This document shows positions 12,671 to 48,968 of a stretch of DNA of 48,968 nucleotides, one piece after another (within the stretch, counting starts at the first letter, position 1; each line of letters begins with the position of its first letter). A program made the position numbers and the translations under genes. The notes under the pieces are model-generated. The model saw nothing but the letters and a program-made list of their open reading frames with translations, did not search any database and was not told the DNA's origin. Source of the stretch: a virus (Duplodnaviria; Caudoviricetes); the IMG/VR virus record IMGVR_UViG_3300005323_000367, positions 1 through 48,968 of that record; one strand, 5' to 3'.

Positions 12671-13023
12671 TACATTACGCTCTCATTTGAGGTGCACTCA
12701 ATACGATAAGTACCAGGAGATTGATCTGTAATGTGGGCATAATTCCAAGTTTTATTTTTATATTGGATAATGTCTCCTGATTGCGGTTTAATGATAACTT
12801 CAAGCACTGATCCATCTGGTTGAACTATTGAGTTTGATTCCTGCACCTCAAAAAATGCCCTATCAGATGAACCTTGCTGACTAAAAGTATTCCCCTTGGC
12901 GTTATCTTCACCAATTTCTACAATAGCTGTAATTTCGGTGCCATTATATGAAATCACTTCGGCGTGTTCGTTAGTATTAAAAAAAAATGATAAATCGGAT
13001 ATTATTTGATCTTTTAGTGCCAT
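12670..13023 (-). CDS. Head-tail joining protein (gpFII-like)
   Basis: LKDQIISDLSFFFNTNEHAE N-terminus; synteny. Confidence 0.65.
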   Translation of the reverse strand: MALKDQIISDLSFFFNTNEHAEVISYNGTEITAIVEIGEDNAKGNTFSQQGSSDRAFFEVQESNSIVQPDGSVLEVIIKPQSGDIIQYKNKTWNYAHITDQSPGTYRIECTSNESVM

Positions 13024-41769: not shown

Positions 41770-42927
41770 ATGAATTTTGAAGAAGAAGTTCAAAGACTTT
41801 CGGCCCAAATCCAGCAAAGGAAAAACCATATCAACAATGAGGAAATGACTAAACATTCACTAATAATACCATTCATACAACTGCTCGGATTTGATGTTTT
41901 CAATCCACTAGAGGTTCATCCTGAATACACAGCCGACTTCGGTAAGAAGAAGGGCGAAAAAGTGGATTATGCGGTATTTAAGAATAATAAAATTATCATG
42001 TTCATTGAGGCAAAGCCTGTTGGGAGCAGACTTGATAATCACAATGCTCAATTAAGCCGTTATTTCAACTCTACTCCAGAATTGAAACTGGCCATTATAA
42101 CGGATGGTGTTAAATATAATTTTTTCTCAGATGTTAAGCAACTAAATATAATGGACACTACCCCTTTCTTTGAAATTGATTTTGCCTCTCTTTCCAAGTC
42201 AGATATACAAACGCTATCACAATTCAGAAAAAACAATATTGAAAATAGTGTTATTTCTAAATTAGCAGAAGAGTTATCATCTGTAATTTCAATACAAGAA
42301 GTATTACGAGATTTATTCAATGAACCATCCGATGAGTTTATAAGATTCATTATTAAGCAAACTGGTAAAATAAGATTAACAAATGGTGCTATTGATAGGT
42401 ACCGCCCATTAGTAAAAGAATCTTTATTATCAACGCTATCGGAAATATTTAATGAAATAAGCAAAGAAGTATTGCAGACAAATTCAACAAAATCTACGAG
42501 AAATACCCCTAAACCAACCCACTCTATTGAACCTTCATCATGCCAAGTAATCCAAGAGCAACCGATGAAAGAACCATCCAGAGAAGAAATGTATGAAATA
42601 GAACAGCGTATATTTTCACGGGTAGAAAAAGTATTGCTAAACAATGGGAACGACATCTCTATGCTTAGTTTTGAGTTATCTCCCGATGAACTTATTTTTA
42701 TATTTAATGATTGTAGATTTTTAAGTTTTAAATCGAGCGATCAATGCCAGTTTTTTTCCGATATTGATGCTCCCATGGCTAGTGAACTGTGCCCTTGCTA
42801 TAAGATATCAAACAAAAATGAGTCTAGCGTAGTTACGTTTAATTCCCCTGCTGATATTGGCAATATGAAGCAATTTATTATAGCTAGCTTAGAATATAGC
42901 TTGAAAAATAATTCTTGTTTACAATAA
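41770..42927 (+). CDS. HsdR_N-like PD-(D/E)XK nuclease domain protein
   Basis: NEEMTKHSLIIPFIQLLGFDVFNP, GEKVDYA, FIEAK, QLSRYF; RBS AAGGAG before 41770. Confidence 0.85.
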   Translation: MNFEEEVQRLSAQIQQRKNHINNEEMTKHSLIIPFIQLLGFDVFNPLEVHPEYTADFGKKKGEKVDYAVFKNNKIIMFIEAKPVGSRLDNHNAQLSRYFNSTPELKLAIITDGVKYNFFSDVKQLNIMDTTPFFEIDFASLSKSDIQTLSQFRKNNIENSVISKLAEELSSVISIQEVLRDLFNEPSDEFIRFIIKQTGKIRLTNGAIDRYRPLVKESLLSTLSEIFNEISKEVLQTNSTKSTRNTPKPTHSIEPSSCQVIQEQPMKEPSREEMYEIEQRIFSRVEKVLLNNGNDISMLSFELSPDELIFIFNDCRFLSFKSSDQCQFFSDIDAPMASELCPCYKISNKNESSVVTFNSPADIGNMKQFIIASLEYSLKNNSCLQ

Positions 42928-43367: not shown

Positions 43368-43976
43368 GTGTACACTATGAAAAAAATTTTACTATGCCTA
43401 TTCGCCCTATTATTCATTGCAAATATTTGTTTTGCAGCAGAAACAAACCTAACAAGCGATGAACCAAAAGCAGAGAACAAAAAAACTACTGTGGCCCTTC
43501 TTTATGTTAATAATGCTAAAGCTACGTATGATGATGAACTTAGTAGCAAAATGATGGCGAACTTCAATTCTTTATTAAAAAATTACACTGTAATCCCTGG
43601 TGGGCGTTATATTGAACTCTTAAATAAAACTGGAATAGCAGATATCACTACTGCTGAACGTACTGATATTGTTGAAGTATTCAAAGGTGAAAATATTGAT
43701 TATGTATTATTTGCTGAGCTGCAACCTTTTGTAAGAAAAGAACGGATCACCTTCTTTACTTATGGCATTGACATAACAGCTATAGTGCCAATAAAAATTA
43801 TTGATTTAAAAGGCAATAAATATCTGTACAATGGTAAATTTACCGAATTTGCATCAGACAGTTCAATGATTGGCGGAATTGGCAATAAATCCGTATCCAT
43901 AACTGCATTAGATAAAGTTATCGAAAAAATGAATGCTGTAATTAAGGTTCGCTTACCGATTGCTACAGAAGGATAA
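43368..43976 (+). CDS. Secreted alpha/beta protein, paralogue A (CsgG/TolB-N-like topology inferred)
   Basis: Signal peptide MKKILLCLFALLFIANICFA; VALLYVNNAKATYDDEL. Confidence 0.75.
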   Translation: MYTMKKILLCLFALLFIANICFAAETNLTSDEPKAENKKTTVALLYVNNAKATYDDELSSKMMANFNSLLKNYTVIPGGRYIELLNKTGIADITTAERTDIVEVFKGENIDYVLFAELQPFVRKERITFFTYGIDITAIVPIKIIDLKGNKYLYNGKFTEFASDSSMIGGIGNKSVSITALDKVIEKMNAVIKVRLPIATEG

Positions 43977-44560
43977 TGTTTATGTCTAATGTAAAAAGAA
44001 TTATGCTAGTGATAATATGCTTATTATCACTAGCATTCCCTATAAATCATACCTTTGCACAAGAAAGAACCAAAGCAACCATCTCTATTATCTTTATTAA
44101 TAGTGCCCGAACTACTTACGATGATGAGCTTACCAATAAAATTAACGTTTGGTTCGATGGAAAAGTAAACGGTATATATAATGTCATTCCAAGTAACCAT
44201 CCATTGGCTAAATTGAAGGAACTCGGTTTTGAAGACATTGGAATGGCTGAAAAGAAAGATTTACTGGATGCTTTTTCCGATATCCACACTGATTATATTA
44301 TTTTCGCCCAACTACAACCCTTTATCCGAAAGGAAAGAATCACCTTATTTACTTATGGAAAAGATATGACAGCCAATATGGTTCTTAAAATATTAGACGT
44401 ATCGAATGCTAAATATCTATATAATGGCAAGTTTATTATAAAAGGCTCTGATACTACTACTGATTGGTTTATTGGCAATAAATCTGTAGCATTAAAAGCT
44501 ATTGATAGTGTTTTGGTTGAAATGGGAGAAATTATATCATTTAAGTTACCCCTGCAATAA
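43976..44560 (+). CDS. Secreted alpha/beta protein, paralogue B
   Basis: Signal peptide; shares TYDDEL, LQPFxRKERIT, KYLYNGKF, IGNKSV with paralogue A. Confidence 0.75.
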   Translation: MFMSNVKRIMLVIICLLSLAFPINHTFAQERTKATISIIFINSARTTYDDELTNKINVWFDGKVNGIYNVIPSNHPLAKLKELGFEDIGMAEKKDLLDAFSDIHTDYIIFAQLQPFIRKERITLFTYGKDMTANMVLKILDVSNAKYLYNGKFIIKGSDTTTDWFIGNKSVALKAIDSVLVEMGEIISFKLPLQ

Positions 44561-44621: not shown

Positions 44622-44957
44622 ATGATTATTATGAAATCAACAAAAAAAATATACCTACACTTCTTCTTAATTTTATTCTTCGCCGCTAGCCTAATATCCA
44701 TCCCCACCCCTGCCCTCTCCCATCAGCCAATAATAGCAACTCAACTAGCCTACCTCGACGATTGCTCCGGCGACACTCTTAGACCCGCTATTCCTCAATC
44801 AGAAGGTGCTTACGTTGCCAACTCCAATACTGGTAAGTTTCATTATGCTAGTTGCCGTTGGGTAGGTAAGATGTCCGAGAGCCATAAGGTGTTCTATGAT
44901 AGCCGTGAGGAAGCTGCTGGGGATGGGTATGTGGCTTGTAAGGTTTGTAGGCCGTGA
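44622..44957 (+). CDS. Secreted protein with Ada-type metal-binding domain
   Basis: Signal peptide; YVANSNTGKFHYASC...GYVACKVCRP. Confidence 0.8.
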   Translation: MIIMKSTKKIYLHFFLILFFAASLISIPTPALSHQPIIATQLAYLDDCSGDTLRPAIPQSEGAYVANSNTGKFHYASCRWVGKMSESHKVFYDSREEAAGDGYVACKVCRP

Positions 44958-44975: not shown

Positions 44976-45149
44976 ATGACCGAAATTAAATGCCCTAAAT
45001 GTAATGGAACAAATTTTGTAAGTAATCAGAAATATTGGGATGATTATGACTATATGGAACAAACATATCCGTCTGGAGAAATGATAGAAAAACAATTGAA
45101 ACGACGTGGATTAAGCCCCACAGTTCCTTGCCCTAGTTGTAAAAAATAA
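44976..45149 (+). CDS. Small zinc-ribbon protein (57 aa, not in ORF track)
   Basis: MTEIKCPKCNG...PCPSCKK; AAGGA RBS. Confidence 0.6.
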   Translation: MTEIKCPKCNGTNFVSNQKYWDDYDYMEQTYPSGEMIEKQLKRRGLSPTVPCPSCKK

Positions 45150-45163
45150 ATTAAATTTAGGAG

Positions 45164-46162
45164 ATGAAATTAGTGAGTTTAAAAGATATTTTAATTATGG
45201 AAGTTCCTTCTGTAGCAATGAAAGACATTCTAAAGCTTCATAAAGTGAAATCGCAAGGAATATCAGTGGAACAGTATGCCGATGCATTACTCTCCGATAA
45301 CAAAACGGCGATTATCGCACCTGCTCTTGCTGATGAATTTAAATTCGCAGGAAAAACAGTTGTTAATCTATGCCTTCCAACAACTGGAATAGACAAGTTT
45401 TTAATGAATAAAGATGACTTAAAGAGAAAATTAATAGAAATACATGGCAATGATATTTTTAAAAATCGTAAAAGAACAGCGCTTTCCTTAGAACCTGTTC
45501 CCATAAGAGCCTATGATTTAGATAGTAAAATATACATTGAGTATTCTTATCAAGGAAACGAACAACGATTTATCGAAAACTTTGAACTTAAAAAACGCCG
45601 CCCTCAATTAATAAATTATGTTATTGTTCACTTCAATCCATTTATGATTGAAGTTCGGTCAAGTGCAGAAGAACGTACTAAGTTCTTAGCTGCTTTTATT
45701 GAGACGTTGGGCCTTGATCAAACAAATGTTCAATGGATATATGACAGTATTTTAGGTGAAACTGAAATAAACCTTCTTGCTGATAAATTGTCAGCAAGTC
45801 TTAAGGGGGCAAAACATAAAATGACAAATGGGATATATGATACGGTTGAAGTTAAAGCTAACACTCAAGTATCTGATTTAAGCCAAGAAAAACAATATCA
45901 AAATCAATTTAAAGGTATTCCTGCTGAAACAAGAAATTTCCGTTTTATTCATTATCACTCATTAGGTTTTCAGCAAAATGTGAGTTTAACCATTACACGA
46001 AAAGGAGGACTCTGGTTTCGCACCACTATAGGTGAAGAAGTAATTAGCTGTGTTGTAAATGCAATTTCTGAAATTCGAAAACAACTTAAAATACAAAATC
46101 ATTCTCTAGTTATACAGAGTGATGAAAGCACTTCATCTTCTAAAAAAACAGTTAATCTTTAA
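45164..46162 (+). CDS. Hypothetical protein, gene 1 of candidate defence operon
   Basis: 332 aa, AGGAG RBS, AT-rich; no motif recognised. Confidence 0.7.
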   Translation: MKLVSLKDILIMEVPSVAMKDILKLHKVKSQGISVEQYADALLSDNKTAIIAPALADEFKFAGKTVVNLCLPTTGIDKFLMNKDDLKRKLIEIHGNDIFKNRKRTALSLEPVPIRAYDLDSKIYIEYSYQGNEQRFIENFELKKRRPQLINYVIVHFNPFMIEVRSSAEERTKFLAAFIETLGLDQTNVQWIYDSILGETEINLLADKLSASLKGAKHKMTNGIYDTVEVKANTQVSDLSQEKQYQNQFKGIPAETRNFRFIHYHSLGFQQNVSLTITRKGGLWFRTTIGEEVISCVVNAISEIRKQLKIQNHSLVIQSDESTSSSKKTVNL

Positions 46163-46238
46163 ATATTGGAAGGATTTCACTTCATTTTAGCGAAGATTAC
46201 TATATTAATCACGTAATAATGGAAAAGGAGGATCATGT

Positions 46239-46604
46239 ATGAATATTTTTGAAGTTGATGATTTGTTAGAGCAAATGGCCATGCAAAATATCCAACACTT
46301 TTCTCCTTATTATCTATGTCATCAACTCAATATCACTAGCGTTGAAGATATCACTAACTATTTGTTAACACTAGTTAACAAAAAACTGATAGCGTATTAT
46401 GAAATTCAGTGTCCTGAAGGACATAGTGACTATGCAGTTACAGATCCAACCCAAATAATCATTGATGAACGAGAATGCGAATTTTGTGGAAATCAATATA
46501 CGCCAGATCCTAACGATATTTGGATTACATTCGATTTTACTGAATACTACTTAAATCATGTCAAAAAAAATACCAAACTTTCCGATACGTACCTTATCTC
46601 CTAA
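46239..46604 (+). CDS. wHTH plus zinc-ribbon protein, gene 2 of candidate defence operon
   Basis: CPEGH and CEFC; AAGGAGG RBS. Confidence 0.7.
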   Translation: MNIFEVDDLLEQMAMQNIQHFSPYYLCHQLNITSVEDITNYLLTLVNKKLIAYYEIQCPEGHSDYAVTDPTQIIIDERECEFCGNQYTPDPNDIWITFDFTEYYLNHVKKNTKLSDTYLIS

Positions 46605-47256
46605 CGACAAGATAGAAACTGTTAATTATAGTACAGTCAAACAACTACCCAAATTTCGTGAATATGAGGAATTACTAAAAAAATATTGTGCAGATCCAGA
46701 ACAACTAAAAAATCTATTTGCCAAAGTTGAAAGCACTCTAGAACAGTTTAGAATACAGTGCAAATCTACCTGGCCAAAAGGTAAACCTAAAACTATTACA
46801 AGCAAAAATGTCGGCGATACATTAGAATCATTAGCACATTATATTTTTTCTTGTACTAATAATATATTCCTTCCCAAAGGTTCTTGGGCAAATGATATTA
46901 GCCAGTTTGACAATATTTTGTATTTAACTTGCCACGAATGTTTTCTAATTGATTGGAAGACCTATACTATTGTTGAATGCAAAAATTGGAGTCATCCTTT
47001 GGACAAACAAGGGGTAAATGATTTTATTGCCAAAATTAGAGATTCTAAGCATAATATTGGGATTATCTTTTCGCGCGAAGGAATTACAGGAAAAGAAGAT
47101 TATCGTGATGCCCAAGGAAAACTTCTTTTGGCAGCCAATGAAGGTATTATTGTGATAATTATTGATGATAAAGATTTGAACTCTTTAATAAATGGAAAGA
47201 ATGTTTTTGAACTATTAGAACAAAAATATTTTGAAAGACGATTATCCCCAGCTTAA
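46558..47256 (+). CDS. Mrr-like PD-(D/E)XK endonuclease, gene 3 of candidate defence operon
   Basis: GDTLESL, QFD, IVECKNW, GIIFSREGITG. Confidence 0.8.
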   Translation: MSKKIPNFPIRTLSPNDKIETVNYSTVKQLPKFREYEELLKKYCADPEQLKNLFAKVESTLEQFRIQCKSTWPKGKPKTITSKNVGDTLESLAHYIFSCTNNIFLPKGSWANDISQFDNILYLTCHECFLIDWKTYTIVECKNWSHPLDKQGVNDFIAKIRDSKHNIGIIFSREGITGKEDYRDAQGKLLLAANEGIIVIIIDDKDLNSLINGKNVFELLEQKYFERRLSPA

Positions 47257-47275
47257 AGCGGCCTAGCCGCTTTTT
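47255..47275 (+). terminator. Intrinsic terminator
   Basis: aaagcggc-cta-gccgcttttt. Confidence 0.75.
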
Positions 47276-47321: not shown

Positions 47322-48968
47322 GTGTTAAACGTAGCAATTTACTGCCGTGTCTCATCAGAAGACCAGCAAGAGCGCGGCACCATAGAAACCCAAATAGAAT
47401 TCGCAACAAAATACTGCGACCTTCACCAACTCAATATAGTCAAGTGGTACAAGGATGACGGAATCTCTGGCACCATCCCCTTCGAATCACGCCCTGAAGC
47501 ATCAATAATGCTCCAAGATGCACAAGAAAAGAAATTTGATACACTCCTATTCTATCGTCTTGATCGCTTCGGCAGGAGTGCTAGAACAATTTTGAATGGT
47601 GTCCACACTTTAGAACAGTATGGAATAAAGATTAAGTCTATGACAGAGCCTTTCGATACAGGAGATCCGGCCGGCAGATTCCTGCTTACTATCCTAGCTG
47701 GCGTAGCCGACCTTGAACGGTCAAACATTCTAGACCGCCTTTGGCATGGAGCCAATCGTGCTGCACGTAATGGTAAATGGCTCGGTGGTATTTGCCCATA
47801 TGGGTACCAAGTTGATGATGAAGGATTCCTTGCTGTTGCTACCACTCCCCTTCCTGGTTTTGAAATGTCAGAATCAGATGTCGTACAATTGATTTATGGG
47901 CTTACAACTGAGCAGCATATGAGTACCATCAAAATAGCTGATTACCTAAATGCCCTAAGCATCCCACCTAAATATGCTATAGAAGGTCGTAAGATAACTA
48001 AAGGCAAACGCAAAGAAAACACGGCTGGCGTATGGACACCTGGCCGTGTAAGAAATATGATTGTACAACCTACCTATAAAGGAATCCATCACTATGGTAA
48101 ACGCTCTAAGAAGGTGCGTGAAATAATTGAACGTGAAGTGCCGGAAATCGTTCCTGAGGATGTTTGGGAAAGTGCTCAATTAGTCTTAAAGGATAATCAA
48201 TTGGAGGCGGTACGTTGCGCTAAACACAAGTACCTACTACGCTCACTTGTTAAATGCTCATTATGCGGCTTAAACTTCTCGGGTACGCCTTACAGAGGTT
48301 CAAAAGGAGAATCTAAGACTTATTATGTATGTAATGGTAAAACCACGTATAGAGGGAAATATATGGGTAAATGCCTAGCTAAAAACATGTCTGCTGATTG
48401 GGTAGATGAAAAGGTTTGGGATGATTGTGTTGACTTTATAAACAACCCTGGTCAGTTATTAGATGGCCTATCGGCAGAAGAAGCAAGTAATCATCTTTCA
48501 ACGGAACATGAGTTACAATTGATAGCCTCCTCCCTATCTCAAAAAGATTCTGAAAAACAATCCATTCTTGATTTATATCGCAAGCAGTTGATAAATAGTA
48601 AAGATGTTGAGGACCAGCTATCCAAAATCATTAATGAAAGAGCTGCCCTTGAAGACCGGCAGAAAGAATTGAAAAACGCCCTCAATACAACTACCAATGA
48701 GGTGAATCGTAAGAAGGACGTTATTATGCTCTTGGATGACTTAAAACAAAAAATCTCAGGTGAAATCACATGGGAAACTAAGCGAAGTATTATTAAGCAG
48801 CTTGTGCGTCAAGTATTCGTTCACACGGTACATTCAGAGGACCGGGATGAACCAGAAGTAAAACTGTCTGTGAAGTTTGTTTTCGCACAGGATGTTCCAC
48901 GCACGGATGTCCGTGTGGATTCCGTGGTGATCAGCGGCAAGAATGTTCTTGTACTCCCAGTGAAGTGA
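47322..48968 (+). CDS. Large serine recombinase (integrase)
   Basis: VAIYCRVSSEDQ, DDGISG, RLDRFGR, recombinase domain, CSLCG and YYVC zinc ribbon, coiled coil. Confidence 0.96.
   Translation: MLNVAIYCRVSSEDQQERGTIETQIEFATKYCDLHQLNIVKWYKDDGISGTIPFESRPEASIMLQDAQEKKFDTLLFYRLDRFGRSARTILNGVHTLEQYGIKIKSMTEPFDTGDPAGRFLLTILAGVADLERSNILDRLWHGANRAARNGKWLGGICPYGYQVDDEGFLAVATTPLPGFEMSESDVVQLIYGLTTEQHMSTIKIADYLNALSIPPKYAIEGRKITKGKRKENTAGVWTPGRVRNMIVQPTYKGIHHYGKRSKKVREIIEREVPEIVPEDVWESAQLVLKDNQLEAVRCAKHKYLLRSLVKCSLCGLNFSGTPYRGSKGESKTYYVCNGKTTYRGKYMGKCLAKNMSADWVDEKVWDDCVDFINNPGQLLDGLSAEEASNHLSTEHELQLIASSLSQKDSEKQSILDLYRKQLINSKDVEDQLSKIINERAALEDRQKELKNALNTTTNEVNRKKDVIMLLDDLKQKISGEITWETKRSIIKQLVRQVFVHTVHSEDRDEPEVKLSVKFVFAQDVPRTDVRVDSVVISGKNVLVLPVK
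48902..48915. other. Putative att junction core
   Basis: CACGGA-TG-TCCGTG dyad exactly where the comM-like frame begins. Confidence 0.7.
48908..48968 (+). pseudogene. comM: 3' portion of interrupted comM/YifB Mg-chelatase-like ATPase gene (continues beyond window)
   Basis: Alternate frame reads CPCGFRGDQRQECSCTPSEV, matching the ComM motif NPCPCGxxGDxxxxCxC. Confidence 0.82.

Follow-up and report, generated by a model that had tools for sequence, protein, structure and literature searches.

A conserved poly-A joint between a gene for a predicted winged-helix adaptor and interchangeable tails, next to a gene for a predicted RdgC-fold protein: an apparently undescribed candidate anti-phage module beside a prophage integrase

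Next to the integrase gene of a tailed-phage prophage lies a real and conserved genetic module that is apparently undescribed and is known from sequence. It consists of a gene for a protein with a predicted RdgC-type fold (A), a gene for a predicted winged-helix/zinc-ribbon adaptor (B) and a run of adenines at the end of B, after which an interchangeable tail follows, usually in another reading frame. In all 33 loci in which we found A and B together, B ends in a run of eight to eleven A at the same Lys-Lys position. We favour the interpretation, with a probability of roughly 0.55, that A acts as a ring-shaped sensor and that a single recoded gene yields both a short form of B and a B::effector fusion, all in the service of anti-phage defence.

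The stretch of DNA analysed, termed the window in the following, is a virus record of 48,968 bases that carries genes for capsid and tail-tube proteins. Its relevant features are:

45164..46162, plus strand: gene A, 332 aa as called, with the likely true start at GTG 45173
46239..46604, plus strand: gene B in its short form, 121 aa, with a strong Shine-Dalgarno sequence (AGGAGG)
46558..47256, plus strand: ORF C, 232 aa, predicted nuclease domain of the PD-(D/E)XK type (Mrr-like), shifted by +1 against the frame of B
46563..46570, plus strand: run of eight A (A8) at the Val-Lys-Lys end of B, the joint between B and the effector
47255..47273, plus strand: intrinsic-terminator-like hairpin with T-run, -11.0 kcal/mol, closing the block
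47322..48968, plus strand: large serine recombinase (integrase) with Resolvase, Recombinase and Zn_ribbon_recom domains, phrog_95; context, outside the module

A sequence-only reading of this DNA had proposed a three-gene system of sensor, adaptor and nuclease, and much of its description was borne out. The three open reading frames of 332, 121 and 232 aa are present, B and C share 47 nt, the block is AT-rich (GC 0.322 versus 0.378 for the window, with the upstream cargo likewise low at 0.34) and the serine recombinase begins at 47322. The terminator proposed for the end of the block was found as a hairpin, by itself a weak sign, with seven such sites found against 3.7 expected. The statement that no methyltransferase is present holds for the 9-13 neighbouring ORFs scanned rather than for the whole prophage: none credible was detected, the sole weak matches being at E 0.042 (on B) and E 0.038 (an Ada-domain match). 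What had been overlooked is the A8 run inside the overlap of B and C. A and B are each preceded by a Shine-Dalgarno sequence, and both the spacing of this sequence and protein P0001 indicate that A probably starts at GTG 45173, giving a protein of 329 aa. Upstream of the C start codon, ATG 46558, no Shine-Dalgarno sequence was found, and C does not contain another ATG.

Behind the repressor region, at 41770-42927 (plus strand), the window encodes a Type I restriction protein with an HSDR_N domain (phrog_4225, 'endonuclease', E 9e-87), a second candidate for a nuclease without a methylase in the same cargo zone. It is followed at 43368-44560 (plus strand) by two tandem paralogous proteins of about 200 aa with signal-peptide-like N-termini and without a family match, then by an Ada-type zinc-binding protein (44622-44957) and by a zinc-ribbon ORF of 57 aa (44976-45149) that abuts gene A. 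On the other side of the module, a second contig (contig 12) of X3, a strain closely related to that of the window, matches the start of the integrase gene (window 47323) and differs in the sequence upstream of it, which suggests that the slot beside the serine integrase carries variable cargo.

Loci related to the module were gathered both via A and via B, and removal of duplicates and false matches left 33 that hold both genes. Dropped were L008 (identical to the window), L016 (A matched weakly, B absent), L017 (the contig breaks off within A) and the duplicates L015, L018-L020, L022, L024-L026, L028-L032, L040, L047, L050, L051 and L057; L043-L046, which we take to encode a metabolic enzyme, were removed as false matches. 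Three loci with a B-like gene that is not accompanied by A (L049, L056 and L060) stand outside the 33 and served as controls. The A-run comprises at least eight residues in all 33 loci and at least nine in 32, the window itself having eight. Relative to B, the frame of the tail after the run is -1 in 29 loci, +1 in three and unshifted in one, counts in which the related loci are not independent of each other. A run of nine with the tail in -1 occurs 22 times and a run of ten with the same offset seven times; the three +1 loci have one run each of eight (window), nine and eleven, and the in-frame locus has ten. A length of ten had been considered as the universal in-frame length and was ruled out by the seven loci in which A10 is out of frame.

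An A8 run by itself is ordinary, as the window contains seven A/T runs of at least eight. Six further runs of eight to nine lie elsewhere in the prophage, at 12979 (A9, among the head-tail genes), 22292 (T9), 9306, 22422, 31542 and 44642. In 26 of the loci, runs of nine or more A were present in only two of 40 other KK[KN] motifs and in two of 249 other long frames, and in the three B-like genes that lack A the run is just four, four and six long. The feature by which slippage genes are recognised, a conserved run of at least 8-9 A at a frame switch, is thus present here.

The tail itself is not conserved as a nuclease. A predicted nuclease domain follows the run in the window only, while a helical domain takes this position in the other 32 loci, so that the anticipated conserved synteny of three genes including a nuclease applies to one locus of 33. 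The reading as "three genes" gives way to a unit of A, B and poly-A joint, with the third ORF as an interchangeable tail. The logic of sensor, adaptor and nuclease still fits the predicted folds; it does not extend to the family as a whole, and the tail is very probably fused to B. The helical tails usually start with an Asn/Gly-rich stretch (GDNxNxQGD-like) that is followed by amphipathic helices, as in L001-L005, L007, L009-L013, L021, L023, L027 and others. None of ten scanned against Pfam scored above the cut-off; the domain could be an oligomerising or membrane-active one. Wherever the tail is out of frame with B (32 loci), the reading frame opening at the run stays uninterrupted for 114-227 codons, and a conserved motif lies directly downstream of the run in the tails. 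Six of 26 tails lack an ATG after the run.

For nuclease-type C, the known cases are a single locus, a near-identical strain and a protein without genomic context (P0032). Residues E90, D118 and E140-C-K142 are invariant in all three sequences, a pattern that we take to be the PD-(D/E)XK site. C matches Mrr_cat below threshold (E 0.004) and phrog_18586, a family of unknown function, with E 3e-8, and the nuclease profile gave no match among PDB sequences. The earlier assignment to the PD-(D/E)XK nucleases therefore stands as a prediction from the motif in three sequences and sub-threshold HMM matches. Neither tblastn with A, P0032 and P0049 nor blastn with a stretch of L052 yielded a match among GenBank phages and PLSDB, and P0032 was without a match in viral contigs. 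Consequently, a second nuclease-type locus was not obtained as DNA with flanks.

In principle, the overlapping arrangement of B and C can be explained in fundamentally different ways: either C is made as a separate protein, or it is made as an extension of B. Three lines of evidence bear on this. First, natural fusions exist. P0032 (347 aa) is a fusion of B and nuclease with 56% identity to B over 117 residues and 54% to C; it may stem from one locus together with P0002, the closest relative of A, as suggested by contigs that are both 4116 long. In L059, an A10 run is read through into a helical tail within one frame of 283 codons. Second, a contig from the near-identical strain X3 (about 98% identity) has A10, two more A than the window, which places B and C in a single frame of 339 aa. 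Note that this contig has a depth of 14, shows 17 other letter differences in about 1,030 and is labelled RNA-Seq although it is probably DNA; X2 and X4 did not cover the A-run, and X1 may be what the window derives from. Third, C differs from its X3 counterpart by nine synonymous changes and one non-synonymous change, and this silent bias argues that the nuclease frame is under selection. Both X3 changes within the overlap are silent in C and alter the tail and the stop of B. We are thus highly confident that the working form of C is the fusion B::C and not a third protein. An arrangement of three separate proteins, with C begun at ATG 46558 by translational coupling and the run merely incidental, would draw on the position of that codon, in frame with C and 46 nt before the stop of B in the window, and on the many relatives whose tail frame offers an ATG, GTG or TTG further downstream. 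We regard it as highly improbable. The ATG lacks a Shine-Dalgarno sequence and is a by-product of His-Val codons, it runs straight into TAA in several relatives and falls out of the C frame in the A10 strain X3, and neither the run in 33 of 33 loci nor the fusions would be explained.

The same data can be read at the level of DNA. The run could be an on/off switch operated by replication slippage, with a defence role retained, in-frame cells making B::effector and the window, at A8, representing an off cell. This phase variation could account for A8 and A10 in two strains of about 98% identity, for the in-frame alleles L059 and P0032, for the range of run lengths from 8 to 11 and for the loss of the B stop in X3. 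Moreover, two of the three alleles of the nuclease lineage (X3 and P0032) are in frame, and the A8 of the window is shorter than usual. Against a pure switch of this kind, only one locus of 33 is in frame, yet all 32 off-frame tails are undecayed. The -1 state is shared by 29 of 33 loci across isolates and metagenomes, and the tails of short B look non-random. For the family, we therefore consider phase variation alone unlikely and a programmed recoding event, as judged from these sequences, reasonably likely. The two are not mutually exclusive, because a DNA switch and polymerase slippage can coexist. For the nuclease lineage in particular, the in-frame alleles and the overlap changes in X3 fit a constitutive fusion of which the window is the off variant. 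With A8 instead of the A9-A10 usual in the family, the window probably makes the nuclease fusion at a low level or has it switched off.

If the fusion is produced by recoding, it could arise during translation or during transcription. Programmed -1 ribosomal frameshifting on A_AAA_AAG or A_AAA_AAA would provide the shift that 29 of the 33 loci need. Both heptamers are known shift sites (PMC3711429), and many relatives carry A_AAA_AAG in phase, with the G correctly placed after the run, so that -1 shifting is possible in these. As the way in which most of the family makes its fusion we find it distinctly unlikely: such a heptamer needs only six to seven A and not the conserved nine to ten, and three loci including the window need +1. 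A downstream hairpin that could stimulate frameshifting was not conserved, with z between -2.0 and +1.1 in 26 loci relative to mononucleotide shuffles. Taken together, the run length held at 9-10, the occurrence of both shift directions and the missing conserved hairpin favour slippage of RNA polymerase over a ribosomal shift. Runs of nine A slip efficiently in vivo under bacterial RNA polymerase (PMC5009743).

Protein A, which the sequence-only reading had listed as an unknown of 332 aa, is a real ORF with a probably later start and an RdgC-like predicted fold. Its AF2 model (pLDDT 91, pTM 0.85) has E. coli RdgC as the best structural match (Foldseek E 4.5e-6). VIA aligned it to RdgC 2owl over 214 residues (Z 11.9, rmsd 4.6), RdgC being the only chain at Z of at least 8 among 48,161. 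Iml3 and CENP-L/N ranked next (Z 7.9 for Iml3 and CENP-L), and RdgC models of phages also matched. The model of A thus shows the two-domain RdgC-type fold of RexA, RdgC, Iml3 and Chl4 and an extra N-terminal helical domain beyond it. Lambda RexA has an RdgC-type fold as well (PMC11077077). From the fold alone, which is associated with ring or horseshoe dimers on DNA, A is predicted to be a DNA sensor that acts as a ring dimer. A word-indexed search gave 27 matches to A, itself included, and a profile search returned 101 protein clusters at E of 0.001 or below. When 80 relatives of A were scanned against Pfam and PADLOC, no relevant match was obtained; 79 were blank in PADLOC and the remaining one matched as a RecG-like helicase. 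P0064 (462 aa) is a natural fusion of A and B (A profile E 1.8e-23, B profile E 8e-7), which suggests that the two proteins bind each other. An A domain also occurs at the C-terminus of a protein of 600 aa (P0113), and the ESM Atlas contains an A-like predicted structure within a cluster of ResIII/DEAD helicases of 1004 aa (TM 0.50). Judging from these three cases, other conflict systems may also make use of the RdgC-like domain.

For B, the proposed winged helix and zinc ribbon agree with the predicted structure (pLDDT 93), which shows a winged helix (three helices plus a sheet) into which a Cys/His ribbon is inserted (C58, H62, C80, C83). The best Foldseek rows were winged helices of the MarR/PadR type, none of them at E of 0.001 or below, and the ESM Atlas offered DUF5939-like models at TM of about 0.7, below the bar for naming. 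B is regarded as a predicted adaptor. In 25 aligned loci its relatives are 21-48% identical to B of the window. The zero-frame tails of short B, available for 32 loci (e.g. L002 6039-6410, L033, L035), are basic, contain hardly any acidic residues and in many cases terminate in an aliphatic string (LALV, LIAI or KVAI, for instance). At least three of the last four residues are aliphatic in 14 of 32 tails compared with 14 of 104 ORF ends (p 5e-4), in a comparison of related loci by a measure picked after the data were seen; by the same measure 40 of 269 shadow-frame ends are aliphatic. This bias hints that short B is made. Such ends presumably resemble protease degrons, and the short-B tails are possibly degrons of this kind.

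The surroundings of the module were inspected in 16 loci with flanks, for which 26 of 47 neighbours were scanned. Ten adjoin a phage-type lysin. One has two DndB genes and an AAA ATPase as neighbours, another is located at rlmH, and a further one has genes for TubZ and Rep3 next to it. In L002 (2612-10445) the two DndB-family genes lie on one side of the module and an AAA_21 ATPase of 723 aa, together with a partner of 329 aa, on the other, surroundings that resemble a defence island. In the viral contig L023 (2019-6548) the module is flanked by a partition gene (TubZ) and an initiator gene (Rep3), and this contig is probably a phage-plasmid. B was matched in 8 of 401, 7 of 269 and 7 of 401 genomes, a patchy spread, and the context of the loci fits defence of the cargo type.

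RdgC is a modulator of RecA, and RexA shifts the balance of the lambda switch. RdgC-fold proteins act in recombination too, which counts against a defence reading, and ring and adaptor might instead work for the prophage itself, in its recombination, its excision or the control of lysogeny. The closest solved fold is RdgC, phage RdgC models match A and the block adjoins the integrase, all of which would suit such housekeeping. The swappable nuclease and helical tails, the patchy spread and the cargo positions beside lysins, DndB and rlmH would not, and we rate this possibility as very unlikely. An anti-phage role, by contrast, appears quite probable from gene content and context.

Our favoured reading can be put together as follows. 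Protein A would form an RdgC-type ring on DNA and would sense intermediates of phage replication or recombination, or damaged DNA, as has been proposed for GAPS4b. Slippage of RNA polymerase on the A-run would set the ratio of short B to B::effector, and one or the other form of B would dock on A, a step with which the natural A-B fusion is in accord. The effector, in the window the nuclease, would then likely cut DNA and kill or stall the cell in an abortive infection, while the low dose of the fusion would limit self-toxicity. A more speculative extension, which we hold to be rather unlikely, treats the slippage site as a standard effector socket: the ring, a sensor of phage DNA, would be loaded mostly with degron-tailed short B and so idle, infection would stop host synthesis, labile B would decay and adaptor::effector (with a nuclease or an Asn-rich helical domain) would take its place, so that recoding would serve both as dose control and as trigger.

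No family was named for A, B or C by PADLOC (2023), Pfam, NCBIfam or PHROGs; in PADLOC 2023, A and C were blank and B reached only E 0.042. The sequence-only reading had called for the exclusion of Azaca, and this could be accomplished. Azaca resembles the present module in having three proteins including a nuclease and in its occurrence in Bacillota. ZacABC comprises a DUF6361 protein, a nuclease of the PLD type and a Walker A-bearing SF2 helicase (10.1101/2025.07.10.664194). None of the three was found here. C has D...ExK in place of the PLD-type HxKxxxxD and gave no PLD match in Pfam, NCBIfam or PADLOC, none of A, B and C is an NTPase with the Walker A/B motifs of an SF2 helicase, A folding as RdgC, and DUF6361 was not matched in Pfam or PADLOC by A, B, C or 80 relatives of A.

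Most alike in its working, as far as A and C can be compared from their sequences, is GAPS4. It has a predicted ring, GAPS4b, with a docked PD-(D/E)xK nuclease, GAPS4a, in a 2:2 complex that is triggered by DNA damage, degrades host DNA and leads to suicide (PMC13748975). A predicted DNA ring combined with a PD-(D/E)xK nuclease on mobile elements, in each case not accompanied by a methylase, is common to both. In GAPS4a the motif is an N-terminal HGxD-SxK and the nuclease gene comes first; here the ring gene leads and C has E90, D118 and E140-x-K142. In addition, the effector of the present module is carried by a winged-helix/zinc-ribbon adaptor, tails are swapped between loci and the joint is a poly-A run, while recoding is not mentioned for GAPS4 in the sections of the paper considered. 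In the ESM Atlas, A lies near a cluster of which 21% carry GAPS4b_N (score 0.93), which is only a lead towards kinship with GAPS4b (PF26110).

RexA/RexB likewise pairs a prophage-borne DNA-binding protein of RdgC fold with an adjacent effector gene (PMC11077077). Neither Pfam nor PHROGs nor PADLOC gave a RexA family match for A. RexB is a separate membrane protein, and RexAB, unlike the present module, has neither an adaptor nor a poly-A joint. The closest described gene design, compared by layout only, is the RdgC-histone operon of Bacillus and Halobacteria, which is always histone-led and of unknown function (PMC11390915). It combines an RdgC-like protein carrying extra terminal domains with a second protein in which an N-terminal winged helix is joined to a different C-terminal domain. 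There, this last domain is a transmembrane one, and a frameshift is not mentioned in the passages considered. In 17 loci, the 200 nt upstream of A held no conserved small ORF that could correspond to the histone leader.

With regard to the joint, the nearest precedents are slippage genes in which a run of 9-11 A gives a short and a long product. In Citrobacter tssM1, an A11 run yields two forms that are both needed, as is their ratio (PMC4256274), and Thermus dnaX and Shigella mxiE/spa13 are further genes with poly-A slippage (PMC5009743). These known cases concern secretion or replication, whereas the present run joins different effector domains. In searches of the open literature, neither the A/B family nor any RdgC-fold system with a conserved poly-A joint to an effector came up, with the proviso that the cluster tables of Antonov et al., a catalogue of conserved poly-A frame transitions (PMC3711429), could include the family. 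Set against defence libraries of the 2023 era, the new element is thus apparently a design in which a DNA-ring sensor is coupled to swappable effectors through a poly-A recoding joint. The family comprises 33 loci across Bacillota and, for A, 101 protein clusters, and it adds to the cases in which the RdgC/RexA fold recurs as a predicted DNA sensor of prophage defence. There is a practical side as well: gene callers split the joint into two or three "genes", and defence pipelines would therefore miss or mis-clone the module. Should slippage prove true, recoding would be a means of dosing a toxic immune effector.
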